Source: an uncultured Chloroflexia bacterium
Lineage (GTDB): Bacteria; Chloroflexota; Anaerolineae; Promineifilales; Promineifilaceae
Direction of reading: 5' to 3'
Assembly (NCBI GenBank): GCA_963736615.1
Contig: CAVTPP010000005.1
Coordinates: 138,473-202,472, forward strand
Length of the DNA stretch: 64,000 nt
The notes beneath the pieces were generated by a model that was not told the DNA's origin, ran no database searches, and saw only the letters and a list, made by a program, of their open reading frames with translations. The position numbers and the translations under genes are program-made. Below, one piece after another: positions 3,405-39,879 of the stretch (position 1 is its first letter; each line of letters starts with the position of its first letter).

Positions 3405-4391
3405 TTGAACCAAATGGTGAATATCCCGAATATCGGGGGAATTTCGAACGAATCGGGTTTTAAACTGCTGGAGAAAACCAGCAATGGTGAGTTTTCAGTT
3501 GGGCAGAATGGCGTAAAGGCCATTGCCGCGACGGGCGACGGTAAGGTGGAGTTTATCTGCTTTGATGACAAGTCGCTGGCGTTTGTGAATTCGGGCATGG
3601 GTTATCCGGCCTACTATCCCGTCTACGACGTCGAAATGAAAAAGCCGGTCAAGGCGGTGTTGATGGATCTGGATGGAACGACTGTGCGTTCCGAAGAATT
3701 CTGGATCTGGATCATTGAAAAAACCACGGCCAGTCTGCTGGACAATCCTGGCTTTCAACTCGAAGAGGCGGATATCCCGTTTGTTTCCGGCCACAGCGTT
3801 TCAGAGCATTTGACACATTGCATCAATAAATACTGTCCTGAGAAGACGGTTGAAGAGGCGCGCGACTTCTATTTTCAGCACACCCACTTCGAAATGAACG
3901 AAATCATGGCAGGGCGCGGCAAACCCAATGCCTTTACACCGACCGAAGGGATTGCGGAATTCCTTTACAAGCTCAAGGAGCAGGACATCAAGATCGGGCT
4001 GGTGACCTCCGGCCTCTATGAAAAAGCATGGCCGGAAATCCTTGACGCCTTCAAGACGCTCGGCATGGGCGATCCGAAGGAGTTCTACGACGCGATCATC
4101 ACTGCCGGCTTCCCGCTGCGCAAGGGCAGTCCCGGAACACTGGGCGAGCTTTCGCCCAAGCCGCATCCGTGGCTGTATGCCGAAACCGCCCGCGTCGGGC
4201 TCGGTATCGAGTTTGCCGACCGCAACTCGGTCGTCGGCATCGAAGACAGCGGGGCGGGGGTTTGTTCCATTCGCCTGGCGGGCTATCCAACCATTGGGAT
4301 CGGCGGCGGCAATATTATCGAAAGCGGCACGCAGGAGCTGTGCTGCCACTATTGTGAAAACTTTGAGGAAATTGCGGAGATCATTCTATGA
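3405..4391 (+). CDS. HAD-superfamily hydrolase (beta-phosphoglucomutase/phosphatase-like)
   Basis: DxDGT motif (LMDLDGTT) and motif IV GIEDSGAG. The start is uncertain: TTG 3405, ATG 3414, or ATG 3636 (MKKPVKAVLMDLDGT). The stop overlaps the next gene's start (ATGA). Confidence 0.8.
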   Translation: MNQMVNIPNIGGISNESGFKLLEKTSNGEFSVGQNGVKAIAATGDGKVEFICFDDKSLAFVNSGMGYPAYYPVYDVEMKKPVKAVLMDLDGTTVRSEEFWIWIIEKTTASLLDNPGFQLEEADIPFVSGHSVSEHLTHCINKYCPEKTVEEARDFYFQHTHFEMNEIMAGRGKPNAFTPTEGIAEFLYKLKEQDIKIGLVTSGLYEKAWPEILDAFKTLGMGDPKEFYDAIITAGFPLRKGSPGTLGELSPKPHPWLYAETARVGLGIEFADRNSVVGIEDSGAGVCSIRLAGYPTIGIGGGNIIESGTQELCCHYCENFEEIAEIIL

Positions 4392-7298
4392 GCATGACAG
4401 TTACCAAGACAGTAGACCAGGTCGCAGGCACGGCGCAGCAAGCAGATGCCAAGATGCCGGAATGCCACTTTATTTCAAACACGCACTGGGACCGCGAGTG
4501 GCGCTACTCCATGCAGCGCACCCGCCACATGCTGGTCTACATGCTCGATATGCTGCTCGATATCCTTGAAAAGGAGCCGGAATTCCAGTCATTCCACATG
4601 GACTCGCAGACGATCCCGCTGCAGGATTATCTCGAAATCCGTCCGGAACGCCGCGAGCAGGTGATCAAGTTCATCAAGGAAGGCCGTTTCCTGATTGGTC
4701 CGTGGTTCGTGCTGCCCGACGAGTTTTGCGTCGGTGGTGAATCGCTCGTCCGCAACCTGCTGCTGGGCCACCGCCAGGCCAAGGAACTCGGTGGTGTCAG
4801 CAAGACCGGCTATTCGCCGTTCGGCTGGGGGCAGATCTCGCAAATGCCGCAGCTCTACAAGGGCTTCGGCATTCCGTTCGCCTCGTTCTATCGCGGCGTC
4901 AACACCGACGTCGCGCCGAACTCCGAGTTCCGCTGGCAGTCGCCCGACGGCACCGAGATCGTCGGGTCGCGCCTGGCCCAGCGCCCGCGCTACAACGTCT
5001 GGTATGTCGTGCAGCGCCCGGCTTATTTCAACCGCGAAGACGAAAACGCACGTCTCGCGCATTGGAACAACGGCGGCGGGCCGTTCCGTCTGGCCGACGG
5101 CGAGTTCAACGAAATCGACATGCGTTATGCCCGCCCCGAGTTCAACTACTACGAGGAAAACGTGCCCGCCCGTGCCTTGCAGGCATTGGAGGAGCAGGAC
5201 GGCGAATGGACCACCGAGCACCGCTTCTGGTCCTGCGGTCACGACTCCTCCTGCCCGGACATCCGCGAAGTGCGCATGATCAAGGATTGCGCCAAGGCGC
5301 TCGAAGGCAAGGCCGACGTATTCCACAGCACCTTCGCCGACTTCCAGCAGGGCGTGGTTGAATCCGCCTCCGAGGATCTGCCGCTGACCGTCGGCGAAAT
5401 GCGCTATTACTACACCGAAGGCTCCTCCTCGGTGCTGTTCGGCTGGATCACCTCCGCCCGCATGGACGTGAAGAAGATCAACTACTGCACCGAGCGCCTG
5501 CTCGGCGACTATGCCGAGCCGATGGCCGGTTTTGCCTCGATGGCCGGCGCGGCCTATCCGCGCGGTTTCCTCGACGAGGCGTGGAACCAGCTCCTGCAGA
5601 ACCACGGCCACGACTCCATCGGCTGCTGCAGCCGCGATGTGGTGCCGCAGGACATGCTCTTCCGCTACCGCCAGGCCAACGAAATCAGCACCTGCGTCAT
5701 GGAGCAGGCCTTTGCCGATATTGCCGGCGCGATCGATATGTCGGATTACGCCAAGGACGATGTCGCCGTGGTGGCGTGGAACGCCCTGCCGCAATCCCGC
5801 ACCGAGATCGCCGAACTGGTGGTCGACATCCCGAAGGACCTCGGCGCCGAGGATTTCCGCCTCGTCGATGCCGACGGCGAGGAGGTTCCGTTCCAGCCGC
5901 TGGAATCGAGCGACCGCTACACCGTCATCCAGAATCCGAACGACTGCGCCGACATGATGGCCATGGAGCGCCAGCGCTTCTACGCCGAACTGCCGGAGCT
6001 TCCGGGATCGGGCTACAAGACATTCTTCGTCAAACCGCTCGACAGAGAAGAAGCGCACGCTGACCCGCACCATCGTCGGCAAGACCAACGGCATGGAAAA
6101 CGAGTTTCTTTCCGTGGTCATCCAGCCCAACGGCGCGCTTTCCGTCACCGACAAGCTGACCGGCCGCAGTTGGACCGATCTCGGTTATTTCCGCGACTGC
6201 TCCGAAATCGGCAATCCGTGGGAGCACATCGGCGTGCCGTACGACGAAGTGCTCAACACGCTCGGCGAAAAGGCACGCATTGCCCGCGTGTTGTCCGGCG
6301 AGCTGGTCACCACCTACAAAGTCGAGCTCGACTGGGAACTGCCGCGCGGGCGCAGCGCCGATGAAAAGAGCCGCTCCGCCGACCGGGTGCCGTACAAGAT
6401 CGTCAACATGGTCACCCTGCGCAAGGGACAGCCGTGGGTGGAGATCGAAACCACCATCGTGAACAATGCGGAAGACCACTACCTGCAGGTTTCCTTCCCG
6501 ACCAATGTCGAATCCGAAACCACGATTGCCTCGACGCCGTTCGACGTGGTGGAACGCAGCATGAAGCTGCCCGATCCCGGCAAATACGACGAAGATCTTC
6601 AGACCGAGCACCCGATGGATCGTTTCGTCGCCATCGAGGACGGCAAGGCCGGCGTCGCGCTGCTCAATGAAGGCCTCAAGGCCTACGAGCCGCACGATGA
6701 CGACGACCAGACGCTCAGCCTGACCATGCTGCGCTGCTTCCCGCTGCGCATCTGCATCACCAACCTGGAGATGACCGACTACAGCAACCAGGACAACGGT
6801 TCGCAGTGTCTCGGCACGCACACCTTCAAGTATGCGTTCATGCCGTATTCGGGAACGGTCGAGACCGCCGGGATCTGGCAGGCCGCCGAGCGCTTCAACC
6901 ATGCTGTGCGTGTGGCGCAGATCGGCCCGTCGGCTGGCGGCAAGCTGCCGCTGGCGCACTCGTTCCTCGAAGTTGAAAACGAGGCCCTCCACGTCAGCGC
7001 CGTCAAGCAGAGCGAAAACGGCGAAGGCTGGGTGGTCCGCCTGTTCAATCCGACCGATAGAACGCTCAGCGGCAAGATCAGCCTCAACGGCGGCAAGGTG
7101 CCGCCGGAGGCGCTGTCGCCCGTTGAGCGTCAGGCCGCCAACTTTGCGCTGCCCGCCGATACCGGGAAGAAGTGGAGCAAGGCGCGGCTTGTCGATCTCG
7201 AAGAGCTGGAAACCGAAGCGCTCGCACTCGATGCCGACGGCGCGGTCAGTCTGGACATCACGAAGAAGAAGATCGTCACGATCGAATTTCTTCCGTAA
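4388..7298 (+). pseudogene. GH38 alpha-mannosidase-like glycoside hydrolase (~970 aa) with one frameshift near 6044-6047
   Basis: N-terminal HFISNTHWDREW motif. ORF 4388-6364 is protein-like only up to ...FFVKPLD. The sequence continues as EKKRTLTRTIVGKTNGMENEFLSVV in the frame of ORF 6093-7298. GC is about 63-65%. Confidence 0.8.
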
Positions 7299-7362: not shown

Positions 7363-8272
7363 ATGTCTTTGCCAAAGAAAACACTCGGACGCACCGGTTT
7401 AAAGGTGACACAACTCAGTTACGGAGCGATGGAGATTCGTGGGAATCGTATTTGGGGTGGGCGACCCTGTACACCTGAACAAGCTGATACCATTCTCAAT
7501 ACAGTAGTTGATGCTGGAATCAACTTTATCGATACGGCGAATGATTACGGAACTAGCGAACTCTTTATCGGGCGCTTTCTTGCAGAACGTCGTGACGAAT
7601 ACTATCTCGCGACGAAATGTGGATGCACCGTCGTTTTTGCCGGCGATCATGACGAAACACCCCATGTCTGGACACGGGATAACATCATGCGCAATATCGC
7701 CGATTCTCTGCCAGAAGATGCAAACTGATTATGTCGATATTCTTCAATTGCACAACCCTGATGTTAAAACTGCTGAAGACAATAATCTGGTTGATATATT
7801 GAACGAACTCAAAGATTCAGGAGTGGTCAAACATATTGGCTGTTCATCGACTTCACCACATCTCAAGACTTACATCGATTGGAATGTTTTTGATGTCTTT
7901 CAGATACCATATTCTGCATTAGAACGTCAGCACGAAAACCTTATTACTAAAGCCGCGGAAGCGGGGGCAGGTATTATCATTCGTGGAGGTGTGGCACGGG
8001 GTGAGCCCGGTAGTGGCCTCGGCAGTCAAGATCGTTGGAGAGTCTATGAAGACGCCCATCTCGACGAGTTGCGTGAGGAAGGCGAAAGCCGGACAGCTTT
8101 TTTACTCCGATTCACGTTAAGTCATCCTTATTGCCATACAACTATCGTTGGTACAATGAACCCCGAACACCTGCGTGAGAATATCGAAATCGCCAGCCAA
8201 GGGGCATTACCAGCCGATGTTTACAAAGAAGCCAAGAAACGGTTGGACGAAGTAGGGCACAGCCCAGAGTAA
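7363..8272 (+). pseudogene. aldo/keto reductase with one frameshift near 7708-7712
   Basis: GINFIDTANDYG and ATKCG lie in frame 1. QKMQTDYVDILQLHNP...IIRGG...TIVGT lie in frame 2. The junction reads ctg-c-cag. GGAGG RBS upstream of the ATG. Confidence 0.8.
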
Positions 8273-8361: not shown

Positions 8362-9493
8362 ATGAGAAATATCTTCACCCCTCCCCCCTGGCTCGACGCC
8401 GCCCTCGAGTTCTGCTTTGACAAAACGCGCCATAATCTGGCCAATCTCGCTACTTTTCCCGAACGAACCGAAGATGGCCAGTGGGTGCAGATACCTCCCG
8501 ACTTGCATGGCTGGTGGGTGGGTGGGCATTGGGTTGGACTGCTCTGGCTGGCTTACGCTGCCACCGGTGATCCATCGCTTGAGGCCGCTGCCCGCGATTG
8601 GGCGAATCGCCTGCTTCCCGGCCTGCACGATCAAGCCGATCACGATCTGGGTTTTCTCTTCGAGTTGGGATTCATACTTGGCTACCAACTTGACCGGCGA
8701 TGAGGGACTCAAAACGCCCGCCTTGCAAGCCGCGGCAACGCTCAGCCGCCGCTTTAACCCTCGTGGCCAGTTCATCCAGGCCTGGGGAGCGCTCGATGCT
8801 TCGCCTGAACTGCGCGGCCGTACGATCATGGATACTATGATGAATCTTGATCTGCTTTTCTGGGCCAGCAAAGAAACTGGTGATCCAGGCTACGCAGAGA
8901 TCGCTGCCGCCCATGCCCGTACCACCCTGACTCACCACGTCCGATCGGATGGCAGCACAGCCCACGTCTGCGACTTTGACCCTGAGACGGGTGCGTTCCT
9001 CAAGCAAGACACGCACCAAGGCTTAAGCGGTACGTCCTGCTGGAGTCGCGGCCAAGCCTGGGGTGTGTATGGTTTTGCCGATTGCTACCGTGCAACCGGC
9101 GCTGCCGTCTTCTTGAATGCCAGCCGCCGCCTGACAGAATATCTCTGGCCACGTTTACCCGCCGATCTCATCCCGTTTTGGGATTTCGACAGCCCGCTCA
9201 TTCCTAACGATGTTCGCGACAGTTCGGCGGCATCAATCTTGGCAGCGGGCTTGCTCCATCTGGCATCCATCGAAGATGATCCCAAGCTGGCGCTTATCTG
9301 GCAAAACCGGGCCACGGCTATCCTCGAATCACTCTGGCAATCCTACACCAGCCGAGATAGCGGTGAAGACAGCTTGCTGCTGCACGGCACACGCTCTAAA
9401 CCCCATAACCTGATGGATCACGGCTTGATCTACGGCGATTATTACTTTGTTGAAGCGCTTATACGATTGTCAAAACCCACCTTAATTTTCTAA
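8362..9493 (+). pseudogene. GH88 unsaturated glucuronyl hydrolase with one frameshift near 8689-8693
   Basis: HDLGFLF, MMNLDLLFWAS and WSRGQAWGVYGF motifs. GYQL (frame 1) continues as TGDEGLK (frame 2). Confidence 0.8.
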
Positions 9494-9518
9494 TCACCTT
9501 ATTTTAAAGGAATCATCC

Positions 9519-10355
9519 ATGAAAAATCATACAATGCTTACATCCAAACAGGGACTCAATCCCTTGCCCTTCAATCCCTGTCAACTGCTCGATTTTAACT
9601 TCCTCAAACTGACGGGCGGCGAAAACCACAGCGCCAACAGCGGTGGTCGCGAAATCCTGGCCGTGATTTTGGGCGGCAAGGCCACCTTTACGGTCAACGG
9701 CACCACATTTGAAAAGATTGGCGGACGGCCGAATGTTTTCAGCGGCAAACCGCATTCGGTGTATATACCTGCTGGGGCGGAGTACAGCATTGAGGCTGAA
9801 GGTGCGGTGGAGATCGCCCTGCCAAGCGCCCCCAGCGATGAGAGTGATATCCAGCCTTATGTGATCGCTCCCCCGCAGGTGGCCAAGGCGTCTGGGGTGC
9901 GGCCAACTTCAAGCGCTACTACAACCAAATTCTCACCCTGGCTGCCCAGCCCGAACTGCCCGCCCGCCGCCTGATTGTTGGTGAGACTTTCACTCCCAGC
10001 GGAAACTGGAGCACCTACCCGCCGCACAAACATCAGGTGGATGATCTGCCGCGTGAGGCTTTCCATGAGGAAATGTATTACTTCAGAGTCAACCCCGGCG
10101 ATGGTTTTGGCATTTGCCACTATTACACCGAAGATGGCGATAAGATCAGCCGCGCGAAGACGAAAACTTTACAGTGCGCGACAACAGCATTCACATGATG
10201 CCGCGCGGCTACCACACCGTTGTCAGCGCCCCCGGCTACACCACATACTACCTGTGGTTCCTGGCGGGCAACCAGCGATCCAGGCCACGGTAGATGATCC
10301 AACCCTCGGCTGGGTTGCCAAGACGATCCCGATGTTGAAAGAACTGGGTCAATAG
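9519..10355 (+). pseudogene. IolB/KduI-family (PF04962-like) 5-deoxy-glucuronate / 5-keto-4-deoxyuronate isomerase with three frame changes (~9890, ~10150, ~10280)
   Basis: Reading across frames 0->2->1->0 restores WGAANFKR...LIVGETFTPSGNWSTYPPHKHQVDDLPREAFHEEMYYF...FTVRDNSIHMMPRGYHTVVSAPGYTTYYLWFLAGNQ...DDPTLGWV. This closely resembles B. subtilis IolB as I recall it. Confidence 0.8.
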
Positions 10356-10437: not shown

Positions 10438-11895
10438 TCACCCACGGTCGAGATTGATCCAGACATTTTTCAGGCGCGTGTAGGCCAATATAGCTTCGGG
10501 CCCGCCCTCGCGGCCAAGACCGCTTAACTTGACGCCCCCGAACGGGACTTCGAACCCGAAGGCGGCTGATCCGTTTATGGTAACGTGTCCCACGTCCAGC
10601 TTGGAAGCCGCCCAATGGGCGGTAGTCAAGTCGTTAGTCCAGATCTCGGCTGAAAGCCCAAAAGAGCTGTCGTTGGCCATGCCAACTGCCTCATCTAGGC
10701 TGTCCACTGGAATAACCGTAATGACTGGGCCAAAAATCTCCTCCCTGACGATACGCATCCCGTTGTGGCAGTCGGCAAAAACTGTTGGAGCAACGAAATA
10801 GCCCCGCTCACCGAAACCTTCCGGCCGGCCACCTCCGGCAATCAGCCGGGCACCCTCTTCTATGCCGAGACTTATATAACTCATTACCTTATCGTAATGT
10901 TTTTTCGACGCTAAAGGGCCAAGGTCAACCCCGGGCTTCGTGCCCGGTCCGGGTTTTAGGCTGTGAACTCGAACGGCTAATCGTTCTAGGAAGGTATCAT
11001 AAAGATCCCGCTGGACGTACCATCGCGAGCGCTGACCGCACGATTGTCCGGCATTCCAGGCCAGCGTTCCCGCTGCGTTGCTCACAGCTCCCTCCAGCTC
11101 CGAAGCATCCTTGACGAATACCAGTGCAGGGCATTTTCCGCCGAGCTCCATGGAGATTACCGGCGTAACATTGCGGGCAGCTGCTTCAAGAACCTTTCGC
11201 CCCGTCTCGACCGAACCAGTAAATACGATACCGCGAACACGGGGATCTTCAAGAAGGACCTCGCCGAGCTCCAAACCGGACCCGGGGATTACGTTAAGCA
11301 CCCCTGCTGGGATGCCTTCTTCTTGAAACAGACTAGCCAAGGCAAGTGTGACGAGGGATATTTCTTCCGCAGGCTTGACTACACAGGTGTTGCCCGCTGC
11401 TAAAGCTGGTGCAATGCTCCGGCAAAAAATGTCTAGGGGATAGTTCCAAGGCGCAATGTGCACCGTAACCCCGAGCGGCTCACGCAGAACATAGTCAAGT
11501 TGCCCTGGCCCGAGATCAACCGTCATCCCCGTTAGCTTATCCGCCAACCCGCCGAAATACTCCAGATAGCGAGCCGCATCCTCGACTTCGGACGAAGCTT
11601 GATGCAGTGGTTTTCCCTGCTCTCTGCTTAAAAGCAGGGCAAGCTCCGAAACATTCCGGCGGATAGCGGCGGCTACAGATACGAGCAAACGACCTCTCTT
11701 GGTGGGAGTCCAAGTCGACCACTCGGCGGAAAGTGCTTTTTGGGCCGCTTCCAACGCCAGACTGGCATCCTCCGCTGTCCCCCAACTCACCTCAGCGAAG
11801 ACTTCCTCCGTCGCGGGGTCTATGACCGGAACCCTTGTGCCGTCCGCTCCTTCATGCCAGACTTTTTCAACAAAACCTTTATAAGATGTATTCAT
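10438..11895 (-). CDS. NAD(P)+ aldehyde dehydrogenase
   Basis: 485 aa with ELGGK and GQSCG (catalytic Cys) motifs. Intact although about 60% GC. Confidence 0.9.
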   Translation of the reverse strand: MNTSYKGFVEKVWHEGADGTRVPVIDPATEEVFAEVSWGTAEDASLALEAAQKALSAEWSTWTPTKRGRLLVSVAAAIRRNVSELALLLSREQGKPLHQASSEVEDAARYLEYFGGLADKLTGMTVDLGPGQLDYVLREPLGVTVHIAPWNYPLDIFCRSIAPALAAGNTCVVKPAEEISLVTLALASLFQEEGIPAGVLNVIPGSGLELGEVLLEDPRVRGIVFTGSVETGRKVLEAAARNVTPVISMELGGKCPALVFVKDASELEGAVSNAAGTLAWNAGQSCGQRSRWYVQRDLYDTFLERLAVRVHSLKPGPGTKPGVDLGPLASKKHYDKVMSYISLGIEEGARLIAGGGRPEGFGERGYFVAPTVFADCHNGMRIVREEIFGPVITVIPVDSLDEAVGMANDSSFGLSAEIWTNDLTTAHWAASKLDVGHVTINGSAAFGFEVPFGGVKLSGLGREGGPEAILAYTRLKNVWINLDRG

Positions 11896-12194
11896 GAATT
11901 AACTTCCTCAATTGGCAATACCGGATTGATAGGAACAGGTAAGATTGTGCACATTGTTCCTATTTGGTTATTTTACATATCCCTTTGAAATGGTATATAT
12001 TTAGCTTGATTGTTCATCAGATATTCTATCTAGGATATGCAAACTTAGCCCTAAAACAGGGTCTTTATTCTAGAAAATTGAAAATTTGTTGATAAGAGAA
12101 TCTAAAAGCAAAAAGAGTTTTCTCACGGCAAACGAACCGCGCGAAAATTCATATTAACAGTGACAATTTCGAAAATATTTTTAAGGAGAATCGC

Positions 12195-13316
12195 ATGTCA
12201 AGACGTTGCCACAAATCGAATCCTGAATCGACTATATCTCGCCGCGATTTTCTACGCGTGGCCGGAGTCAGCGCGGCAGGTCTTATTATTCAAAGCTGCC
12301 AACCCCAAGCACGAATTATTCCTCCCGTCGCTGAGCCGACCAGCAATATTTCGACGCAGGTGGCTGTTAGCCAGGTCAGGACGTATGATCGAGCCACGAT
12401 TGAAGCCCAAATACGCGAACTGATCGAAGGTCTTGGAGGATTGGGCGATATAGTAAAGCCGGGCGACAGTGTAGCGATCAAGACGAATCTGACCGGTGGT
12501 GTTGATTCTGGGAGTTTGCGAGGCGTCGAGCCAGTTGACAGCTTTGTGACCCACCCAGAAGTTATCCGGGCCCTGACCAAAGCGGTGAAAGCGGCTGGAG
12601 CGGCCGAGATTTTCATCGTTGAAGCTGTTTACGAGTGGGAATCTTATCGCCAGTGGGGTTATGAAGATATCGCCGAGGATACCGGTGCTATCCTGATCGA
12701 TCTGAATGATTCCAAGCCATACAATGATTTCCACGACGCTTCAGTCGGCGCAGATAAATTTGTCTATGATTCTTTTATTTTCAATCCAATCATCAACGAG
12801 GTCGATGTTTTTATGTCAGTTGCCAAGATGAAGAATCATTACCTGGCGGGCGTCACTCATACGATGAAGAACCTCTATGGTTTGGTTCCCTATCGCTATT
12901 ATCGCCTGGGCGAAAATGATGAATATCGATCGGGTTTCCATGGCGTAGGAGAAGAGACACGGAGCCGCCTGCCGCGGATTATTGCCGATCTAAACCGGGC
13001 TCGCCCGATCAACTTTAGCTTGATTGATGGCATCAAGACCACACAAGGTGGTGAAGGGCCTTGGATAAACACGCTCGCTCCAATTGAGCCGGGCCTACTC
13101 GTCGCCGGCAAAAATTGTGTGGCCACCGATACAATTGCTACCGCTCTCATGGGTCATGATCCAACTGAAGAGTATCCCAATGCCCCCTACTTACGCTGCG
13201 ATAACCATTTGAACATCGCCGCGGCATTAGGGCTGGGTACTAACCGGTTAGAGGATATCGAAATTGTCGGGCAACCCATCGAAACGGTGAAAACGACGTT
13301 CTCTCCGGCCTGGTAG
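12195..13316 (+). CDS. DUF362-domain protein with twin-arginine (TAT) signal
   Basis: N-terminus SRRDFLRVAGVSAAGLIIQSC. AGGAG RBS. 373 aa. Confidence 0.7.
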   Translation: MSRRCHKSNPESTISRRDFLRVAGVSAAGLIIQSCQPQARIIPPVAEPTSNISTQVAVSQVRTYDRATIEAQIRELIEGLGGLGDIVKPGDSVAIKTNLTGGVDSGSLRGVEPVDSFVTHPEVIRALTKAVKAAGAAEIFIVEAVYEWESYRQWGYEDIAEDTGAILIDLNDSKPYNDFHDASVGADKFVYDSFIFNPIINEVDVFMSVAKMKNHYLAGVTHTMKNLYGLVPYRYYRLGENDEYRSGFHGVGEETRSRLPRIIADLNRARPINFSLIDGIKTTQGGEGPWINTLAPIEPGLLVAGKNCVATDTIATALMGHDPTEEYPNAPYLRCDNHLNIAAALGLGTNRLEDIEIVGQPIETVKTTFSPAW

Positions 13317-13491
13317 TCTATTCGGGGTAGAAAATGACCTGAACCCTGCAATAACCCCATCTAGATAGAATTCACCATCGTTCTTTTTTGGTTAAATCGG
13401 TGGGCTCTGGCCGAAATCAGGCGAGCCCATATTTAGCTATCTCACTGTACTTGCCGTGTAAAGACGGTATTTGGGCACTTGGGAGATTCAG

Positions 13492-14466: not shown

Positions 14467-14484
14467 GAAAACAGCGAGGAGAAA

Positions 14485-15534: not shown

Positions 15535-15618
15535 GTAACAAGAATGAGCCTAGCCCAAATATCAATGTGGACGGCCGTTGCGTTCAAGAATGATATGTGA
15601 TGGTTATAATTAACCGCT

Positions 15619-17025: not shown

Positions 17026-17030
17026 ATTTT

Positions 17031-17801: not shown

Positions 17802-17802
17802 G

Positions 17803-18816: not shown

Positions 18817-18824
18817 ATTTCCTC

Positions 18825-25699: not shown

Positions 25700-25711
25700 A
25701 TTGGTTTATCC

Positions 25712-27049: not shown

Positions 27050-27243
27050 GGCTAATGCCTCCTACTTTTGTCAATTTCGCAAATTGCGGAACTGCGATTA
27101 TCTACCTGGGAATGAACTCGATGTCAAGTGTTACACAGTTGCGCGGAAACATTATAAAACGTATCTCGAACCTGGCAAAAACCATGTGGATTTTTCGCAT
27201 AGTAAATCTACTCTTTTCTAATTCCACGAGAGACTGTCTGTGT

Positions 27244-29567: not shown

Positions 29568-29880
29568 TGGTAGGAATCCTTGCTATCTCTGCTATCAAAA
29601 TTTCCAGTAACCCCCTGGTTAGGATTTGAGCATTTCAAGAATAGAATAGAGTATCTGGTGGGCTAACGCCAATTCCAATTCGATTTGGTAGGATTTCTCA
29701 AGCGTTATTTGGATCACGGCAGTATTTACCCCGTCACGGGTTCGTAAACAAGTAACTACTTTTGCTTCTCGAACTGGAAAAGATTTTGGTTGATAAAACG
29801 GGATCGCCAACTAAGCTCAGAAAGTGCAAGTACCCAACAAAAGAATATAATCTTTGATATTTTCAAGGAGATAAACGATC

Positions 29881-30332
29881 ATGTCCAAACAAGACCTTGG
29901 GACCACCATCATAACTCAAATTGGTATAGTGGTTAATAATATCGAGATTGCGGCTCAACGCTGGGCCGACGTATTTAAGCTGCCTATGCCAGAAATTCTC
30001 GTGACCGACGCGGTTGGTCTGGCCCAAACTGAATATATGGGCGTCTCGACGCCCGCGCGAGCCAAGCTCGCCTTTTTTGATTTTGGTCAAGTGGATGTCG
30101 AGTTGATTGAACCTATCGATGGGCCCAGCACATGGAAGGATCAATTGGACCTGCACGGCGAAAGCATCCACCATATCGCTTTTGAAATTCAAGGAATGGG
30201 TGAGAGTATCACTTTTCTCGCTGATAAAGGGATCTCTCTTGTCCAACGGGGTGAATACAGTGGTGGACGCTATGCCTATTTGGACGGCCTGGCCAGTTGG
30301 GCGCATTCCTGGAGCTACTTGAAAATGATTGA
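29881..30332 (+). pseudogene. VOC/glyoxalase-fold protein (methylmalonyl-CoA-epimerase-like) with a frame change near 30290-30296
   Basis: IGIVVNNIE...VELIEP...HHIAFE motifs. A family-typical C-terminus, LGAFLELLEND*, appears in the -1 frame ending at 30332. The listed ORF instead runs on to 30384. Confidence 0.6.
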
Positions 30333-30374
30333 CCCAATTGCCGTACCCAATGTCCAAATCCCTCCCGCACTCTC

Positions 30375-31303
30375 ATGTCGCTAAAGCCGCTTGCTCTGGG
30401 TGGCTGGGTTTTTGGAGATGATAGTTGGGAAGGTGCAAAACGCGATCTTCTGCAATAAGGCGATGGAGCAAGCCCTGGCAAACGACATTCGCCATTTTGA
30501 TACAGCCGCCGACTATGGCAACGGTGCATCGGAACGATTGATTGGCCAGTTTCTGGACGCCAGACGTGACCAGGTCTTTCTGGCAACTAAAACCAACATT
30601 GATGAGATGGACTCCGACCTCATGATGACTAAAGTTGACGAAAGCCTCGCGCGTCTCCAGACTGATGTGATTGACCTTTTCTACATCCATTGGCCGCGCC
30701 AAGGGCAGGATATGCGCCCTTGATGGAAGGACTCGAACGCGCGCGGGAACGGGGGAAAATTCGCGCCATCGGGGTGAGTAATTTCTCGGTCTGCACAGAT
30801 GGCTCAGCTTTCCGAGGTGGGGCGGATTGACGCGCATCAGCTTTGTTACAATCTCTTCTGGCGCGTTGCCGAAGACGACATCATCCCCTATTGTCGCCTT
30901 CATGATATCGCCGTCGTGACCTACAGCTCGATTGCCCAGGGCGTTCTTGACGGGAAAGTTTGCGACGCAATCCTGGTCTTAAAGAGGGTGATCAGCGTGC
31001 CAATACAGTCCACTTCGAAGCGACAGTCTGGCCTCATATTTATGAAGGAGTGCAAGAGCTGAAGAAGTGCTAGCCGCTGAATTAGATCGCCCGTTGACCG
31101 ATTTGGCTATTCGTTGGGTTTTGCGCCAGCCGGGAATCAATACGGCAATCGTCGGGGCCAAAGATAGTGCTCAGGTCGAGCAAAATGCGGCGGCGCTTCG
31201 AGGCGATATCCCGGACCAAATATTTGATCGCATGAGCGCGATCAGCGATAGTGTGATTGCAAAGATGCCGAATAGTGGCAATATGTACCGCTATTATCCA
31301 TAA
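30375..31303 (+). pseudogene. aldo/keto reductase broken by at least 6 frame changes (~30430, ~30718, ~30792, ~30950, ~30970, ~31063)
   Basis: Family motifs are spread over all three frames: HFDTAADYGNGASE, ATK, LQTDVIDLFYIHWP, GKIRAIGVSNFSV, AHQLCYNLFWR, VVTYSSIAQGVL, GKFATQ, PGLKEGDQR, LAIRWVLRQPGINTAIVGAK. The true start may be ATG 30350. Confidence 0.75.
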
Positions 31304-31440
31304 ACAGTTGCGGTTGTTTATCCTTGTAGAACGCTATCGTCCACGGGGGACTAAACTGAAGATAAGGTCGTGAATAGGGCATTTCAGGGCTAGATAGCGC
31401 CGCGTAGTCTATCTAGTCGGCCTTTTTGTAGGGTAAGAGA

Positions 31441-33866
31441 ATGAAAAAAACTCGCGAAGTTTTGTCTCTAAACAAAGGCTGGTTTTTTCAACTTGGTGAT
31501 GAACTCCCAGATGATATGAGATTGCACGGCAATGTGCAGATCATCAATGATGAAACCAATTTGTGGCAAAAAGCAGGCAATCATGGCCTATCTAAGCCAG
31601 ACGTACCTGGAATAGACCGGTGGCGGCGAGTTGACCTGCCGTATGATTACGTCGTTGAAGGCGAATACTCGCCAGACGCTGCCGTCAAAACCGGCTCGCT
31701 CAAGCATGGTAAAGCTATATACGTTAAGCGTTTCTTTCTTTCCGAAATGGACAGAGGCAGACGCATTTTTCTTGAGTTTGACGGTGTGTATCGCGATTGC
31801 CGTGTCTTCATGAATGGCCATTTTGTGGGGCGGCATCTGAGTGGTTACACTTCTTTTGGTTTTGATGTCAGCGAATTATGTTATTTTGGCGGCGATAACA
31901 TCGTTGCCGTGCATGTTGATGCGACTGACAATGAGTTATGGAGCTATGAAGGGGGTGGCATCTATCGCGGTGTCCGTTTAGTGAAAACAGCTAACATATT
32001 TGTGCCGCAGTGGGGAACCTATGTGCGAACGGGGCCAGCCGATGATCCTGGCAAAGTTCAGGCTGAAATTACAGTACACAATATGGATTATTCACCAATT
32101 GTTTGTGAGATAGAAAATGTGATTGTGGGGTCGGACGGCACGGCCGTCACCCAACTCCCACCAAAAACTATCAACATCAACGCCATTGATAAGTGTACAT
32201 TGAAGGTAAACGGCCACATCCCAAATCTCCAACTCTGGCAGCTAGATGATCCCAAGCTGTACACGATGGTTACGACTATTAGTGTCGATGGAACTACCGT
32301 CGACCAATACGAAACCAGATTTGGCATGCGTTATTTCGACTTTGACGCCGAGGCCGGGTTCTCGCTCAACGGCGTGCCGATGAAGCTCAAAGGGGTGTGC
32401 TGTCATCAGGATCACGCCGGTGTCGGCGCTGCTGTGCCGGCATCCCTGCAAACATGGCGTGTGGCGCGACTCAAAGAGATTGGCGCCAACGCGATCCGCA
32501 CCAGCCATAACCCGCCCGACCCTGCTTTGCTCGATGCTTGTGACAGGCTGGGAATGCTGGTCATGGACGAAATCCGCCTGCCTGGTGTCTCTGACGAAGT
32601 CCTAACACAGCTAGATGGTTTGGTGCGTCGTGATCGCAATCATCCCTCCGTCATATTGTGGAGCTTGGGCAATGAGGAAATGATTGTGCAGCATACCGAT
32701 GTAGGGCTCAATATGTTCCGCCGCATGCAGCATCTCGTGCACAAGTTAGACCCCTCACGAAAAACAACTTACGGCATGAATATGAACTGGATCGATATTT
32801 GTGATATCCACGATCAGGCTGGGTTTCGTTTTGATGTATGGGGTAGTAATTACCGCAGCGGCCAAAATAGTGAGAACTACGATATTTTCCATGAAAAGTA
32901 TCCTGACTGGCCGATGCTTGGTTCGGAGACTTGGGGCGGGGCGGCAACACGGGGGCTGTTTACTTTGGATATAAGCCCATATCCGATTAAAATCGAGGAA
33001 CGTTGGCGTATCAAGGATGTGGTTGTTTGGCGGGATCCAGAATTTGAGGGCATTGCCAGTGCCTATGGTGGCACAGCTACGCCATGGGGATATTCGATTG
33101 AGGAGATGTGGCAAGATTGTGTGCAACGGCCGTATATGGCGGGCACTTTTGTCTGGACCGGTTTTGACTATCGCGGTGAAACATTTCCTTACGACTGGCC
33201 CTCTGTGATCACCCGCTTCGGCGTGATGGATTATTGTGGCTTTTACAAAGAAGTCGCCCATTATTTACGCAGTTGGTGGCGCCAGGACGACCCCCATCTC
33301 TTCTTGCTGCCGCACTGGAATTGGAACGGCCGTGAAGGGGAGACGATCAAAGATATGGTGTTATAGCAACTGCCACGCTGTTGAACTGTGGTTCAATGGA
33401 ACATCGTTGGGACGACAAGAGATGCCGGTCAACTTCCGTCTGGAATGGCAGGTTGCTTACGAAGCTGGTGAGTTGATTGTTAAAGGTTATGACGCGACCG
33501 GGGCTGAGATGTTGGCTGATGTCCGACGAACGACGGGCGACCCGGCGCAGGTTGTGCTGCGGCCATTGCTTCTCAACAATCCCAAGGCCGTAGATGATGT
33601 GGCCGTGGTTGCCGTTGAGATTCAAGATGCCTCTGGCGATATCTGTCCACTGAGCGACAATCTTGTCACGTTTGATGTAAAAGGGCCGGCCCGGATTCTT
33701 GGTGTAGGTAATGGCAATCCGGTGAGTCATGAATCTGACAAATCTAACCAGCGCAAGGCGTATCATGGTCTATGTATGGTCTTGCTCAGTCTGACAGGAG
33801 AGGCCTGAACCGATACAGGTAAAGGCTGAATCTCCGGGGTTGACCGGGGCAATGATTGAGCTATAA
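31441..33866 (+). pseudogene. GH2 beta-galactosidase/glucuronidase-like hydrolase with two frameshifts (~33350, ~33803)
   Basis: LNKGWFF, WSLGNEE and NGREGETIK|IWCYSNCHAVELWFNG. The C-terminus ...LSLTGE|[20 protein letters not shown] lies in a third frame. Confidence 0.8.
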
Positions 33867-33892
33867 ATTCATACTGGCAAATAGTGATCGCT

Positions 33893-35266
33893 ATGAAACG
33901 ACCCAACATCCTTTTTCTTCTTACCGACGATCAACGGTTTGATACGATTCATGCATTAGGCAATGAACAAATTCACACGCCAAACCTGGATTATTTGGTA
34001 GAAAATGGCGCGGCTTTTACCCATCCGCTATCATGGGCGGCACATCTGGAGCGGTATGTATGCCCAGCCGGGCCATGATGCATACCGGTCGCACGCTCTT
34101 TCACCTGCACGCCAGGGACAGAACCATCCCCGAGGAGCATATATCTGCTGGAAGAGCCGGCAGGCGCACGGATATGAAACATGGGGCACGGGCAAATGGC
34201 ACAACTCACGGCATCGTATGCGCGCAGCTTCACCGCCGGCGACGAAATTTTTTCGGGGGCATGGACGATCACTGGAACGTGCCCGCCAACCATTATGACC
34301 GGAGCGGCGATTATCCGGCCCCGCCCCAGGTCAAAGTCCGTTGGCTGCTCGAACGAAGTGACCTAACCGTCAAACGTTGATCATATCTCCCAGGAGTACA
34401 CTCGAGCGAGTTGTTCTGCGATGCGGCCGCGAATTTCCTGCAAAGCCACAGCTCTGACGCGCCCTTTTTCATGTATCTCGCCTTCATGGCGCCGCACGAT
34501 CCACGCACCATGCCGCGGGAATATCTGGACATGTATGACCCAACGAGATCGAGCTGCCGCCCAACTTTATGCCCGAGCATCCCTTTGACAATGGCGAACT
34601 CAAGGTCCGTGACGAGCTGCTGGAAAAATGGCCTCGCACCGAAAAGGCCATCAGACGCCACCTGGCCGAGTACTATGCCATGATCACCCACGCTGACGCC
34701 CAGATGGGCCGCGTGCTGGACGCTCTGCGGGAGTCAGGTCAGGCTGAGAACACAATCATCGTGTTTGCGGGCGATAACGGTCTGGCGCTGGGGCAGCATG
34801 GGCTTATGGGCAAGCAAAGCCTCTATGACCACAGCGTGCGCGTGCCCTTGGTGATGATGGGACCGGGGATCCCGGTGGGGGAACAACGTGACGTACTTTG
34901 CTATCTGATCGATATATACCCAACGCTATGTGAGGTGACCGGGCACACGATTCCCAAATCGGTGGAAGGACTCAGCTTAGGGCCGGCATTGGTGGACACG
35001 GCCGTTCCCCATCGCACCCACCTCCATTTTGCATTTACAGATTTGCAGCGGGGCGTGACGGATGGACGTTACAAGTTGATCGAATCTATCACAAATGACT
35101 GTCTTACTACCCAACTTTTTGACCTCAAGCCAGATCCTGGGAATTAAATAACCTGTCAGACGACCAGGCTTTTTCAAGTTCTGTCGCTCGATTACGTCAG
35201 GAATTGGTGAAGTGGCGCACGGAATTGGATGATTGGGGCGATCTGTTCTGGAAAGGTTATGAATAG
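33893..35266 (+). pseudogene. formylglycine-type sulfatase, heavily disrupted (about 7 frame changes plus an in-frame TGA at 34378-34380)
   Basis: [23 protein letters not shown] (CxPSR), GYETWGTGKWHN, FGGMDDHW, PFFMYLAFMAPHDP, YYAMITHADAQMGRV, FAGDNGLALGQHGLMGKQSLYDHSVRVP and DPGELNNL tail segments are found in alternating frames. Confidence 0.85.
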
Positions 35267-35322
35267 GAAGGAAGAATCAGCACAAAAAGGCTTAAAGGTT
35301 GTTTCAAGTCAGTTAGTGAATT

Positions 35323-36382
35323 ATGTCTTATGAGGATGGGTGGGCCGCAATTAATCTGGAAAAACCGAGTCGCATTCCGCGTACGGAATACTCGGCTGAG
35401 ATGCATTGGGAATTGATAACGGCCGTTACCGGTATCAAAGTAGACGAACATAGTTCACTAGAGTTACAGCAGCGGGCTGGTACCGCCTTCATGAAGGCGT
35501 GGAACTACGATTTTTACTGGAGCACGCTCATATCCAGGGATGAGTTTGGCGTTGTACATACGAATATGGGCCATGCAGCAATAGGCTGCCGGTGGGGTGG
35601 ATTGGGACGATGATATCAAGACCCTCTTTGCCGATCCGCAAGATGTCCTAAACTTTGATCCTTGGAAACAGCTTGGAACCCGGAATAAGAACGAGATAAA
35701 AAACCGGTACGAAGCACATTACCAAGAATTATGCGCTCGCCAGCCAACCGGGATCAATATGACTGGCATTTACATCACCCTTATCTCCGGTTTCATTGAT
35801 TTATTTGGCTGGGAAATGCTGTTGTTGGCCGCTGGTGTTGATCAGAAAGGATTTGGTGAGCTTTCCAACCGGTTCGCAGGATGGATGCAGCAATATTTTG
35901 ATGCCCTGGCTGAAGCCGCTGTGCCGGTTGTGATGGTGCATGATGATATTGTCTGGTCTTTCGGGCCTTTTATTCAACCGGCATGGTATCGAGAATACCT
36001 CTTCCCGAATTACAAAAACTATTTTGCCCCACTACTGGAAAGTGGGAAGAAAATCATATACACAACCGATGGCAACTTTGACCGCTTTGTAGACGATATT
36101 GCGGATACGGGGGTACATGGTTTTGTGCTGGAACCGTGGACAGATATGGCTGCGGTCGTAGAGCGATATGGGCAAACACATGTCATTATCGGCAATGCAG
36201 ATACGCGCATTTTACTATATGGTACAAAAGAGCAGATCCGTGCTGAAGTTGAACGGTGTATGAATCTGGGGCGCGATTGTCCCGGCTTTTTTATGGCTGT
36301 AGGCAATCATATTCCCCCGAATACACCGGTAAAGAATGCGTTGTATTACAACGATATCTATTTAGAATTGAGCCATCGCTAA
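35323..36382 (+). pseudogene. uroporphyrinogen-decarboxylase (URO-D)-fold family protein with one frameshift near 35584-35592
   Basis: The 96-aa and 261-aa ORFs join as ...TNMGHAAI|AGGVDWDDDIK. C-terminal part: VMVHDDIVW...TTDGN...GFVLEP...MAVGNHIPPNTP. Confidence 0.7.
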
Positions 36383-36493: not shown

Positions 36494-37630
36494 ATGATTG
36501 AGGATCAAACTGTAAAGATCGGCTTAGTTGGTACGGGTAATATCAGCGACATTTATTTACAAAATGGACAATGGCTCAACACGATTGAGATCATAGCCGT
36601 TTCGGATTTAGACTTGGAAAAGGCGGCTAAACAGGCAGACGCTTTTAATATTCTACAGGTTTGCACAGTGGATGAGATGTTGTCAAATCCAGAAGTAGAA
36701 ATTGTACTGAATTTGACGACCCCGGAGGCACATGGGCCAGTCGCGATGGCGTCACTGAAAGCAGGCAAGTCGGTTTACAATGAAAAGCCATTGGCTTTGA
36801 CACGTGACGAAGCACACTCTATGTTGGCATTGGCCCAACAACGAGGGCTGCTTATCGGTTGCGCGCCAGATACTGTTATGGGTGCAGGTATTCAAACTTG
36901 CCGCCAGTTGATTGACAGCGGTGCCATTGGTAAGCCGGTGGCAGCAACGGCTTTTGTCATGGGACCGGGGCATGAGTCCTGGCACCTCAACCCAGCATTT
37001 TTTTACCAGCCAGGCGGCGGGCCAATGTTTGATATGGGGCCATACTATTTGACCACGTTGATTAATTTGCTGGGACCGGTAACGGCCGTTTCTGGTATGG
37101 TCACCAAAGGGCAAACACAGCGCACAATAACTAGCCAACCTCTTGCCGGACAGAAGATAGATGTTCAACTGCCGACCCATGTTGCTGGTCTGATGACCTT
37201 CGAAAACGGTGCCGTTTGCACTATCGTCACCAGTTTCGATGTGCCAGGACATGAGCATCCATTTATTGAGATTTACGGCACTGAAGCCACTATCAGCGTC
37301 CCTGATCCCAACACATTTGGTGGGCCAGTACGGCTCAAACGGCGTGGAGAAGCGTGGCAAGAAATACCACTAAGATACGACTATGCAGGCAACTCACGGG
37401 GATTAGGCTTAGCCGATATGGCAGCAGCTCTACGCGACGGGCAGATGCGCCATCGCGCCAATGGCGAAATTGCGTACCATGTATTGGACTTAATGTGGGC
37501 ATTTCACGATGCTGCTGAACAAGGAAAGCAAATTACATTGCAAAGTCACTGTAATTATCCAGAACCAATGCCGGCTTATCCGGTTTTTGGCGAATCTAAT
37601 TTTTATAAAGGGAAGCTTAGAGAAAATTGA
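36494..37630 (+). CDS. Gfo/Idh/MocA-family NAD(P)-dependent oxidoreductase
   Basis: N-terminal Rossmann segment [15 protein letters not shown]. 378 aa. About 40% GC and intact. Confidence 0.85.
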
Positions 37631-38311: not shown

Positions 38312-39879
38312 TCATGACGCTGTGTTTGGGATGGGTAAAGCCGCCAATTCAGCGTATGCCGGTTCTGTGCGCTTAAGTAATTCGGCATAAAAGGCGGCGT
38401 ATTGACGGTAAAGCTGATGCGCTGCCGGGTCTGGTTCATAGCGCGTTGAACGCTGTATAAATTGCTCAGATGCTGCCGTCATATCGTCGAAAATGCCTAG
38501 CGCATATCCGGCCAGAATCGCATTGCCGACCGCGGCCACATCGTCCCGACCAAGGCAAACATAAGGCACGCCCATCACATCCGCCTTGATCTGGTTCCAT
38601 AAGGCGCTTTGCGAACCACCGCCATAGGCTGTGATTTCTGTCACATCTGTTTCCGGGTAAATTTCCTGGAACGATTGGAAAGTCAGATATTGGTCATAAG
38701 CGATGGATTCTAAAATGGCGCGATAGAAAATGCGCCCGTTTGTGTGTCCATGAGAAGCCAATCCATGCGCCGCGATAATTGGTGTTGTTAGGGCTGGCGC
38801 GCCCACCTAAGATGGGGAATAAAGAACAATTTCTCGGAACCGGGCGGCAGCTATTCTGCCGCCATTTATCTAGAACTGCATATGACTTTTGCCTCCCGAA
38901 TCTTGCGCAGATAATTTCGTCGGCATAGGCAAAGGTTTCTTTGAACCAGTGATGGGTCAGCCCGCCGCCGATGATGTAAGCAGACGGGTTCCAGTGCCCA
39001 GGAATTGGTGATGGCAAAATTTCGGCGACGCGGTTCTTCATATCGGGCTGAAAGGTGTTGGTACAAAGAGCGATCAAGGGATAAGTGCCGGCGTTGTCGG
39101 CCATGCGGTTGGGGTGGGTGATGCCTGCGCCGATTAACCCGGCAACCTGATCGGCCATCCCGGCCACAATGGGTGTTCCCGACCAGCAGTCCAACGGCGT
39201 CGGCAAAAACCGGGCTTAGGCTGCCGATGATGTCTGATGAGTTAACGATGCGTGGAAGTTTTTCCGGTGAGATATTCATCGCTCGGCACAGCTCATCAGA
39301 CCAAGTGTAGTGCTGGGTGTCACTGAGGCCAGTGACCCACAGATAGGTGATGTCTATGAAGATGTCGTCTACGGGCAGGCCGGCCAGTTTTGCCAACAAG
39401 TAACCACTTATTGTGGCGAATTTGGCGGTTCTCCGGTAGGCATCGGGGAAGGCATCCCGTATCCACATGATTTTGGGGGCAATGGTGGGCTGTCCAGAGC
39501 CGGTGATTGACCGGATTAGATCGTGATGATGCTCTAGAACGCGGTTGAGGTAGGGGGTAAAGCGTATATCGAGGGTGGTGGTGTACGGTGTGGTTGGGTT
39601 GCCATCTACGTCTATGCCTAAGACGCCGCTTTGCATGCCGTCAAGACATATGGCGGCGATGTTGTCGGGAGATACGGCCGTTTTTTCTACCAACTCGCGC
39701 ACCGACTCAACGACCGCATTCAAAATCATCTCCGGATCATACTCGGCCACACCTTGCTCTGGTTGATCGGGGCGGGTATCTCGTTTAGCTGCACCTAATG
39801 ATTTGCCATCGGTATCATAAATTGAAGACTTCGTAAAACTCGATCCGACGTCGATACAGACAAAATATTTTTGTTTCAT
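38312..39879 (-). pseudogene. FGGY-family carbohydrate kinase with at least 4 frame changes (~39183, ~38865, ~38808, ~38726) and a possible in-frame TAG (38851-38853)
   Basis: N-terminus YFVCIDVGSSFTKSSIYD, then SGTPIVAGMADQVAG, GGGLTHHWFKE, MAAE*LPPGSEKLLFIPHL, GGRASPNNTNYRGAWIGFSWTH, FYRAILESIAYD and AYGGGSQSALWNQIKADV across three frames. The start overlaps the upstream gene's stop (ATGA). Confidence 0.8.

Follow-up and report, generated by a model that had tools for sequence, protein, structure and literature searches.

The question raised by this locus is whether eleven sugar-degrading genes have been broken in the organism itself, or only in the assembly deposited for it. The window, by which we mean the whole 64,000-nt stretch analysed here, belongs to a contig held as a 221,237-nt NCBI/ENA record, and it carries ~37 indel events and two in-frame TAG codons across the 11 genes, in two zones at 4.4–10.4 kb and 27.2–39.9 kb. 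A preliminary description of this DNA had placed at least 29 breaks in 11 genes and in two such zones; the breaks are present as placed, and are slightly more numerous. The broken genes and the two control zones are as follows.

4388–7298, plus strand: GH38 alpha-mannosidase (62% GC), one extra base at ~6043
7363–8272, plus strand: aldo-keto reductase 1 (AKR1), one extra base at 7709
8362–9493, plus strand: GH88-like hydrolase, one shift at ~8690, placed by motif continuity only
9519–10352, plus strand: IolB (5-deoxy-glucuronate isomerase), bases missing at ~9885, 10139 and 10279
10438–27049: control zone 1, intact genes of sugar-acid and fucose catabolism, with no indel against environmental contigs over 10.5–27.0 kb
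27244–29567, minus strand: GH31, extra bases at 27821 and 28377, and a compensating pair (28603 missing, 28610 extra)
29881–31300, plus strand: VOC/glyoxalase and aldo-keto reductase 2 (AKR2), nine indel events between 30290 and 31064
31441–33808, plus strand: GH2, extra bases at 33349 and 33810
33884–35275, plus strand: sulfatase, eight frameshifts (seven missing bases, one extra)
35323–36382, plus strand: URO-D-like gene, extra base at 35581 and an in-frame TAG at 35582–35584 (TAC elsewhere)
38312–39879, minus strand: FGGY sugar kinase, seven indels and a TAG at 38851–38853
39876–59428: control zone 2, which holds intact genes (among them PEP carboxylase, IlvD/Edd and MTHFR) and over 40.0–59.5 kb has no indel relative to environmental contigs

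The window was compared with Logan contigs of other samples, assembled from the short reads of six public runs on sediment or salt marsh: X1–X4 (from three studies), ERR11523668 (L162) and SRR23867504 (L164). Most of the contig proves to be a backbone 99.8–100% identical to a population widespread in coastal and other sediments. At every break site covered, the contigs of the six runs are mutually concordant against the window, and none of the lesions is found on any covering contig, whether from these runs or from the orthologues L161 and L163. Of the truncated ORFs looked up in a collection of 15 billion proteins, those found there occur only on the source contig. Upon applying the environmental indels, full-length ORFs result for GH38, AKR1, GH31, AKR2, GH2, the URO-D-like gene and the FGGY kinase. 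The k-mer share in indexed runs is at best 0.64 overall, at most 0.23 for the kinase patch and at most 0.11 for GH38; tblastn found almost no homologues of the zone 1 genes in 160 fetched loci; and scans of genome and metagenome contigs for syntenic relatives, by way of the intact Gfo-type oxidoreductase at 36494–37630, yielded best matches of 65% and 69% identity.

In GH38, the extra base divides the gene into ORFs of 658 and 401 aa, and the C-terminal Pfam domains lie in a different frame from the N-terminal and middle ones. Two X3 contigs lack this base, and its removal gives a 976-codon ORF. The gene as a whole is only ~90% identical to environmental contigs, with ~15 of the first 24 mismatches listed (5162–5545, counted by hand) at third codon positions. 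The AKR1 Pfam profile also falls in two frames (positions 2–95 and 95–287); an X4 contig is missing the extra base, and the corrected ORF has 305 codons. In the GH88-like hydrolase, a continuous motif runs across frames (...HDLGFLFELGFILGYQ, followed by LTGDEGLKTP...), and such a shift from frame 1 to frame 2 would most simply be one extra base. The IolB breaks are located by protein homologues, the environmental contig at 9481–9741 reaching none of the three sites. Here, frameshift-aware alignment gives the same three sites against P0253, P0254, P0255 and P0258, Pfam KduI positions 25–125, 129–208 and 208–250 lie in three frames, and once the frames are corrected the protein aligns end to end with its homologues at 87% amino-acid identity.

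In the second zone, all of the GH31 indels lie within a private divergent patch at 27680–29230, where divergence is 8.8% (133 substitutions, as against at most 2 per 200-nt bin outside it) and GC content is 55.6% versus 52.4% in L162. The corrected gene is a 778-codon ORF, and an intact 773-aa form is found on Logan contig L162 and also in the same 90% protein cluster as the truncated ORFs. The VOC/AKR2 events (bases missing at 30290 and 30716; extra at 30372, 30374, 30454, 30791, 30950 and 30965; two extra at 31063–64) are absent from all covering contigs of X1–X4 and L162, which are concordant against the window. With the nine edits applied, AKR2 becomes an ORF of 334 codons bearing only 8 substitutions (synonymous to nonsynonymous, 5:3). 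GH2, the Pfam domains of which are divided between two ORFs, is restored to 791 codons; relative to L162 it has a single substitution in the whole gene and zero in 31412–33611.

For the sulfatase, plain tblastn HSPs crossed stop codons, and a custom frameshift-aware dynamic-programming aligner was used, as also for the kinase and IolB. The shift sites (34025, 34159, 34209, 34247, 34348, 34388, 34543 and 35136) are consistent against four homologues, with which the protein aligns end to end once its frames are corrected. From ~34047 to ~34860 the gene is a private, GC-richer allele: environmental contigs cease matching at 34047, divergence from L164, whose coverage begins at 34238, is ~15–35%, and the same alignment gives a sharp right-hand border at ~34860. 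L164 itself carries an intact sulfatase C-terminal portion of 348 aa and an intact URO-D-like gene. In the window the latter is restored to 353 codons, and intact 352-aa versions sit in the same 90% cluster. Its TAG lies among 4 differences packed into 11 nt (35580–35590). The orthologues L161 and L163 (82% identical) each have one gap when aligned with the window here; ENA contigs of 573 kb and 11 kb (URO-D-like protein identity at least 90%, DNA 82%, not syntenic) were treated as orthologues only.

The lesions of the FGGY kinase (bases extra at 38725, 38807, 38863, 38865, 38915 and 39181, one missing at 38884) all fall within a patch at 38406–39181, the remainder of the gene being clean, and the corresponding edits yield a 522-codon ORF. 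Its TAG lies in a dense cluster of 5 indels in 110 nt (38807–38915), and its substitutions comprise 18 synonymous, 12 nonsynonymous and 1 nonsense. Taken gene by gene, the earlier counts hold for GH38, AKR1 and the GH88-like hydrolase (one each), for IolB (three), for GH2 (two) and, as net breaks, for GH31 (two, plus the compensating pair). One break in VOC and at least six in AKR2 have become nine events across the pair; the one URO-D-like break is joined by the TAG; and at least four kinase breaks with a possible TAG have become seven indels, equivalent to four net shifts at the protein level, with the TAG in place. The ~7 sulfatase breaks are now eight, while the TGA that had been listed with them, at 34378, lies between two shifts and so need not be in frame.

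How are the breaks distributed? Random placement over the 54.9 kb examined would put all events within the 18.9 kb of the two zones with a probability of ~7e-18. The two stretches originally described as unbroken (10438–27049 and 39876–59410) indeed have zero indels, there being none in 36 kb of controls compared with environmental contigs, and the control-zone ORFs give Pfam matches near full length. A single X1 contig that spans position 40000 has 7 gaps before it and none over the 2.4 kb that follow. Within the zones, the breaks are confined to sharply bounded patches of 0.8–3 kb that carry a private divergent allele, such that the damage follows patches and not genes, the other half of the same gene being clean. 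The kinase has 41 differences in 780 nt versus 2 in 651 nt (p = 2e-9), and the flanks of its patch are nearly free of differences (0 over 521 nt, 2 over 651 nt).

The region from 59.5 to 64 kb has few ORFs. We considered it as a third broken zone and rejected it, as it consists of an intergenic stretch and then an ORF of >996 aa that leaves the window. An Rfam scan found no RNA families in the window.

It had been proposed that the breaks fall mostly in GC-rich genes. A weak link of this kind is present, with mean GC of 53.0% in broken and 49.7% in intact genes (one-sided Mann-Whitney p = 0.019), but 4 of the 11 broken genes have a GC content of 50.5% or less, and an effect of this size is too weak for GC bias to be the main driver. 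Possession of a private divergent allele is the better correlate of the breaks.

Given that uninterrupted versions exist in at least six public runs and that the breaks lie in short patches, the most likely account is that the frame breaks are consensus errors of the deposited assembly as opposed to mutations of the organism. We put the probability of this reading, and of its best specific form, errors that a long-read or hybrid consensus retained at loci differing between strains, at about 0.78. The breaks are private to one assembly, patchy, indel-dominated and reversible by environmental sequence, and removing them restores ORFs typical of their families. The second of the two explanations offered in the preliminary description, residual long-read errors left by GC-biased polishing, would thus be right in essence as to error, though GC bias is not supported as the cause. 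Some observations count against consensus error: zero backbone indels in 36 kb mean that the error process would have to be very uneven, and insertions outside homopolymers are unlike the classic Nanopore error type.

Mechanistically, the contig is on this reading a mosaic in which a common backbone is joined to short patches bearing private, divergent accessory glycan-catabolism alleles. The source sample presumably held several strains that share the backbone and differ in the patches. With a long-read or hybrid approach, reads of every strain would then add up over the backbone, or short reads would polish it cleanly, while each patch allele would be covered by its own strain's reads only, or be affected by reads of the other allele aligned to it wrongly; alternatively, where the short-read graph is broken, long reads may have filled the patches. 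In either case the patch consensus would retain 1-nt indels and a few wrong bases. Both the platform and the precise step of the pipeline at which the errors would have arisen are inferred.

A rival reading is genuine decay: one strain has recently inactivated its accessory glycan-catabolism genes, and the assembly is correct. All 11 broken genes are dispensable and catabolic, with the core PEP carboxylase, IlvD/Edd and MTHFR intact; this accessory gene set and the two in-frame TAG codons would fit relaxed selection; and since contigs drop rare variants, a minor broken allele could exist in nature. Yet the breaks are absent from the other public samples, relatives and protein records examined, and relaxed constraint is not gene-wide, one gene half being damaged and the other spared. 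Substitutions within the same patches bear the mark of purifying selection: synonymous changes exceed nonsynonymous ones in every patch counted (GH31 100:31, with differences at the three codon positions of 22/10/108; kinase 18:12; AKR2 5:3), and the Pfam score is not lowered by them (83.0 versus 83.1 bits). That the patch substitutions are mainly synonymous indicates that the patch alleles are real and under selection, and excludes random sequencing noise as their source.

The indels themselves also look unlike those of decaying genes. Over 29231–33920 (4.7 kb, backbone identical) there are 14 substitutions and 10 indel events, a ratio near 1:1 that has p ~2e-6 if natural substitutions outnumber indels 10:1. 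Insertions exceed deletions, 22 to 14, and 12 of 20 extra bases differ from both neighbours, with no long homopolymers or simple-sequence repeats at these sites (runs of at most 3 nt). Homopolymer slippage is rejected on these grounds, and homopolymer context, raised earlier as a check, applies to a minority of the indels. Natural bacterial indels, as Chen and colleagues (2009, cited in PMC5930550) are said to have found, are skewed instead to repeats and deletions. The indels here are thus neither a minority, nor repeat-linked, nor deletion-biased. The proposed decay of horizontally acquired GC-rich genes is accordingly not supported, covered break sites being unbroken elsewhere, damage patch-wise and substitutions mainly synonymous; nor do the nonsense codons, once cited in its favour, weigh heavily, both TAGs lying inside dense clusters of differences. 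We consider genuine strain-private pseudogenes unlikely.

About equally improbable is that the private alleles are themselves unreal, the consensus having been blended from recruited reads of other organisms' homologues, with the frameshifts marking blend junctions. The sulfatase patch, 15–35% divergent and GC-richer, does have stretches near-identical to the population allele, and frameshift 34543 sits at the edge of one. Many environmental contigs of other organisms match conserved parts of GH31, GH38 and the sulfatase at 88–95% identity, and the window's patches are GC-shifted relative to all relatives (in GH31, 77 versus 29 changes). On the other hand, divergence in GH31 and the kinase is even (8–22 substitutions per 200 nt) and strongly synonymous, as would be expected of one coherent allele, and in AKR2 and GH2 indels are numerous and substitutions nearly absent. 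With their sharp borders, even and mainly synonymous divergence and identical backbone, the divergent patches have the hallmarks of mosaic alleles arising by recombination or horizontal transfer.

It is less probable still that the indels are real features of one strain's recombination-imported accessory glycan-catabolism alleles, which would have acquired their many frameshifts during import or shortly afterwards. An uncultured sediment bacterium, probably of the Chloroflexota, would then have a strongly mutagenic repair or recombination process confined to patches, or else have taken up donor copies already decayed; were the breaks real, they would indicate an unusual mutagenic process limited to patches. 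Least credible of all are biological frameshift bursts, whether by error-prone repair synthesis accompanying divergent recombination, programmed frameshifting or phase variation, for although the breaks coincide with import-like patches (sharp borders, synonymous divergence), there are several sites per gene (up to 8–9), none conserved in orthologues or shifted in the environmental population, no repeat tract or homopolymer at any site exceeds 3 nt, GH2 has indels without imported divergence, and up to 9 frameshifts per kb is, to our knowledge, orders of magnitude above any mutagenic repair.

If the breaks are consensus errors, annotation of the deposited contig would turn 11 genes into pseudogenes or split ORFs, the organism's ability to use sulfated glycans, mannosides, uronates and inositol would be underestimated, and completeness and "genome decay" statistics would be skewed. 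Such errors would cluster where strains differ, and not simply where GC is high. As a diagnostic that works even without the source reads, short-read contigs publicly available for the population allow consensus errors, which are patchy, reversible and dominated by indels, to be told apart from allelic divergence, which is synonymous and keeps the frame.

Among known systems, bacterial pseudogene decay resembles this locus in its several frameshifts and stops in dispensable catabolic genes with recognisable motifs, but differs in that the breaks here are unshared and not gene-wide, with purifying selection kept and an atypical indel ratio and context. As in homologous-recombination mosaics, sharp patches in GH31, GH38, IolB, the kinase and the sulfatase, 5–10% and up to ~30% divergent and mostly synonymously so, stand against a near-identical backbone; recombination would explain why the alleles diverge and why GC is shifted, but leaves the frameshifts unaccounted for. 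Residual indels in long-read assemblies (Nanopore, PacBio CLR) are known to create apparent pseudogenes (PMC8103633; PMC12007338), and in Nanopore MAGs they are the dominant error, worse at low coverage (PMC8103633). There, too, single-base indels split well-conserved genes, relatives restore the frames and errors are uneven, although here the backbone is error-free over 36 kb, the errors lie in patches of 0.8–3 kb and most extra bases fall outside homopolymers. In Trypanosoma brucei Lister 427, collapsed divergent alleles lead to wrong read alignments, INDEL errors and truncated ORFs (PMC8445201). That organism is a diploid eukaryote, whereas the alleles here would be those of bacterial strains that we infer to co-occur; the breaks here sit where the contig departs from the sequence of the widespread sediment population.

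The preliminary description of this DNA had placed at least 29 reading-frame breaks in 11 genes, within two zones. That clustering is confirmed: the 11 genes carry ~37 indel events plus two in-frame TAG codons, every one inside those zones (4.4-10.4 and 27.2-39.9 kb of the window), with none in either control zone (10.5-27.0 and 40.0-59.5 kb), where the ORFs are intact as had been claimed. Chance clustering is excluded (~7e-18). For GH38, the first of two aldo-keto reductases (AKR1), IolB and GH2, neighbouring ORF pieces in different frames match successive parts of one Pfam model, while for the URO-D-like gene the match of the C-terminal piece is limited to profile positions 174-336, in the distal part. 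The frameshift-aware alignment that had been proposed was carried out with a purpose-written protein-to-DNA aligner and four homologues per gene, and yields 8 consistent frameshifts in the sulfatase, 3 in IolB and 4 net shifts in the FGGY kinase. Base-exact break positions in the remaining genes come from comparison with environmental DNA; the GH88 break (~8690) is placed by motif continuity alone.

The genes of the window make up a region for carbohydrate and sugar-acid utilisation, with glycoside hydrolases (GH38, two copies of GH88, GH43, a fucosidase, GH31, GH2), a sulfatase, IolB, three enolase-superfamily dehydratases, KDPG aldolase, PfkB and FGGY kinases and an aldehyde:ferredoxin oxidoreductase (AFOR), followed by the core genes IlvD/Edd, MTHFR and PEP carboxylase. 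GC is ~50%, rising to 60-63% over 4-7 kb and to 56-58% over 28-29 and 34-35 kb. The names of the best protein hits hint weakly at Chloroflexota/Anaerolineae. The tungsten-type AFOR (20824-22800) sits amid sugar-acid dehydratase, aldolase and kinase genes, which suggests an anaerobic, ferredoxin-linked pathway step. Two URO-D-like paralogues (35323-36382 and 39876-40952) lie on either side of the Gfo, ThuA and kinase genes; proteins of the same 90% amino-acid-identity cluster (DNA 82%) are encoded on two environmental contigs (L161:10001-11204 and L163:9977-11180) in a context unlike that of the window, beside caspase-like peptidase C14 genes, with a 41-aa ORF coming next. At 59500-64000, 1.5 kb of AT-rich DNA (41-42% GC) without long ORFs precedes an ORF of >996 aa that runs past the window end and, with its repeated '...VAGNDSDPN...' units, resembles a large secreted or adhesin-type protein. 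No Rfam match was found across the whole window.

A k-mer search detects the window's DNA in numerous metagenomes from marine sediment, salt marsh and other sediments, and Logan contigs from four runs of three studies were aligned to it. Over the controls these contigs are 99.8-100% identical to the window, with 0 indels in 36 kb; in the zones, every covering contig agrees with the others against the window at single-base indels. One 6,698-nt contig (L162, ERR11523668) covers 27212-33920 with exactly the indel list of the other contigs and encodes GH31 (773 aa), the glyoxalase-type VOC protein and the second aldo-keto reductase (AKR2), all three intact, and a 2,737-nt contig (SRR23867504) carries the sulfatase C-terminus and the URO-D-like gene, both intact. 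When the window is edited to match the environmental indels, the reading frames of seven genes are restored, and the two TAG codons, both within dense clusters of differences, read TAC (URO-D-like) and AAG (FGGY kinase) in environmental sequence.

Broken genes: restored ORFs and differences from environmental sequence
GH38: 976 codons restored; ~90% identity to all environmental contigs, gap-free
AKR1: 305 codons restored
IolB: ~95% identity, from one 261-nt contig
GH31: 778 codons restored; patch 27680-29230 with 133 substitutions and 4 indels; 100 synonymous, 31 nonsynonymous, 0 nonsense
AKR2: 334 codons restored; 5 synonymous, 3 nonsynonymous, 0 nonsense substitutions
GH2: 791 codons restored
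Sulfatase: match to the environmental population ends at 34047; ~15-35% divergent and GC-richer until a sharp border at ~34860
URO-D-like: 353 codons restored
FGGY kinase: 522 codons restored; patch 38406-39181 with 33 substitutions, 7 indels and 1 nonsense change; 18 synonymous, 12 nonsynonymous, 1 nonsense

Those truncated products that a 15-billion-protein collection contains are confined to the source contig (221,237 nt, NCBI/ENA), and in any indexed run the k-mer share is at most 0.23 for the kinase patch and 0.11 for GH38. Given these results and the agreement of the contigs against the window, the breaks are private to this assembly. The kinase-patch k-mers are present at 16% in one run, labelled 'organism A' (2022, study P18), which may come from enriching or culturing a close relative and could lead to the source strain. 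L162 has a 1-nt deletion of its own in GH2 (contig ~1000, window 32840), giving ORFs of 510 and 316 aa, at a site where the window and contigs from two other runs are intact; public contigs, too, thus carry occasional private frameshifts.

The differences are distributed patch-wise. Outside the GH31 patch, 200-nt bins have at most 2 substitutions (0 across 29412-30011). One flank of the kinase patch is identical over 521 nt; the other, which lies within the same gene, has 2 differences in 651 nt (p = 2e-9). Private alleles occupy 4388-7298, ~9480-10350, 27680-29230, 34047-34860 and 38406-39181, and are 5-30% divergent, mostly synonymous, GC-shifted (slightly richer, 55.6% vs 52.4% in GH31) and sharply bordered. 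With GH31 changes falling 22/10/108 by codon position, the patch substitutions show the mark of purifying selection, a pattern that rules out noise as their origin; being rich in synonymous changes, and with window and population kinases scoring equally in Pfam, these alleles are real and coherent and come from a related lineage. Irrespective of the frameshifts, the patches have the look of a recombination or HGT mosaic affecting accessory glycan-catabolism genes.

The frameshifts are of another character. Across 29231-33920 there are 10 indel events vs 14 substitutions, and GH2 has two frameshifts and one substitution (0 substitutions across 31412-33611). Insertions outnumber deletions (22 vs 14), 12 of 20 extra bases are unlike both neighbours, and the longest homopolymer is 3 nt. 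In bacteria, indels that arise naturally make up the smaller share of changes, occur preferentially at repeats and are more often deletions; a reference for these traits is Chen et al. 2009 (PMID 19329651), cited by PMC5930550. At 30286-30294 and 35133-35141, two of six missing bases change the population's CCTAGG/CCTTGG to CCTGG, a Dcm-type CCWGG site, which may reflect motif-linked basecalling error or coincidence.

Genuine strain-private pseudogenes, the real decay once considered, would suit the dispensability of all the broken genes, and contigs, on which the comparison rests in place of source reads, conceal rare variants. Yet gene-wide relaxed selection could not spare half a gene, nor give synonymous substitutions alongside up to 9 frameshifts per kilobase, and the indel spectrum is unlike the natural one; we regard decay as improbable. 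A consensus blended with reads of other organisms, which best fits the sulfatase, is at odds with GH31, the kinase, AKR2 and GH2 and seems about equally doubtful. A biological burst of frameshifts (mutagenic repair, recoding, phase variation) is very unlikely with several shift sites per gene and homopolymers of ≤3 nt.

Sequencing or assembly error, the other alternative initially offered, is supported by indels that are private, patchy and reversible with environmental sequence. The GC link proposed alongside it holds in direction (broken genes 53.0%, intact 49.7%, p = 0.019) but is modest, several broken genes being low-GC; an explanation by private divergent alleles at loci that vary among strains should take its place. 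Biologically, the frame breaks are most likely not a real feature; they serve as a quality flag and a worked example for telling consensus error from gene decay.

The damage pattern fits known technical artefacts. When divergent alleles are merged into one sequence, reads align wrongly and the resulting indel errors truncate ORFs (PMC8445201). This fit, together with that to long-read indel errors, leads us to propose a strain-mixture consensus: the source sample would have held strains alike in backbone but not in these accessory loci, and the consensus would have been deep or well polished along the backbone but shallow, mixed or long-read-filled in the patches, so that indels were retained there; we infer both the sequencing platform and the pipeline step. 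Two contigs of ERZ25039600, an assembly not tied to the window's source, represent the same sequence (L161:4206-9089 and L163:1-5027; contig_9682, contig_43942) with 38 mismatches and 143 gap columns in 5 kb, the signature of an indel-rich long-read consensus, showing that such assemblies occur for this habitat. Errors that persist in long-read MAGs are chiefly indels, and they increase when coverage is low (PMC8103633).
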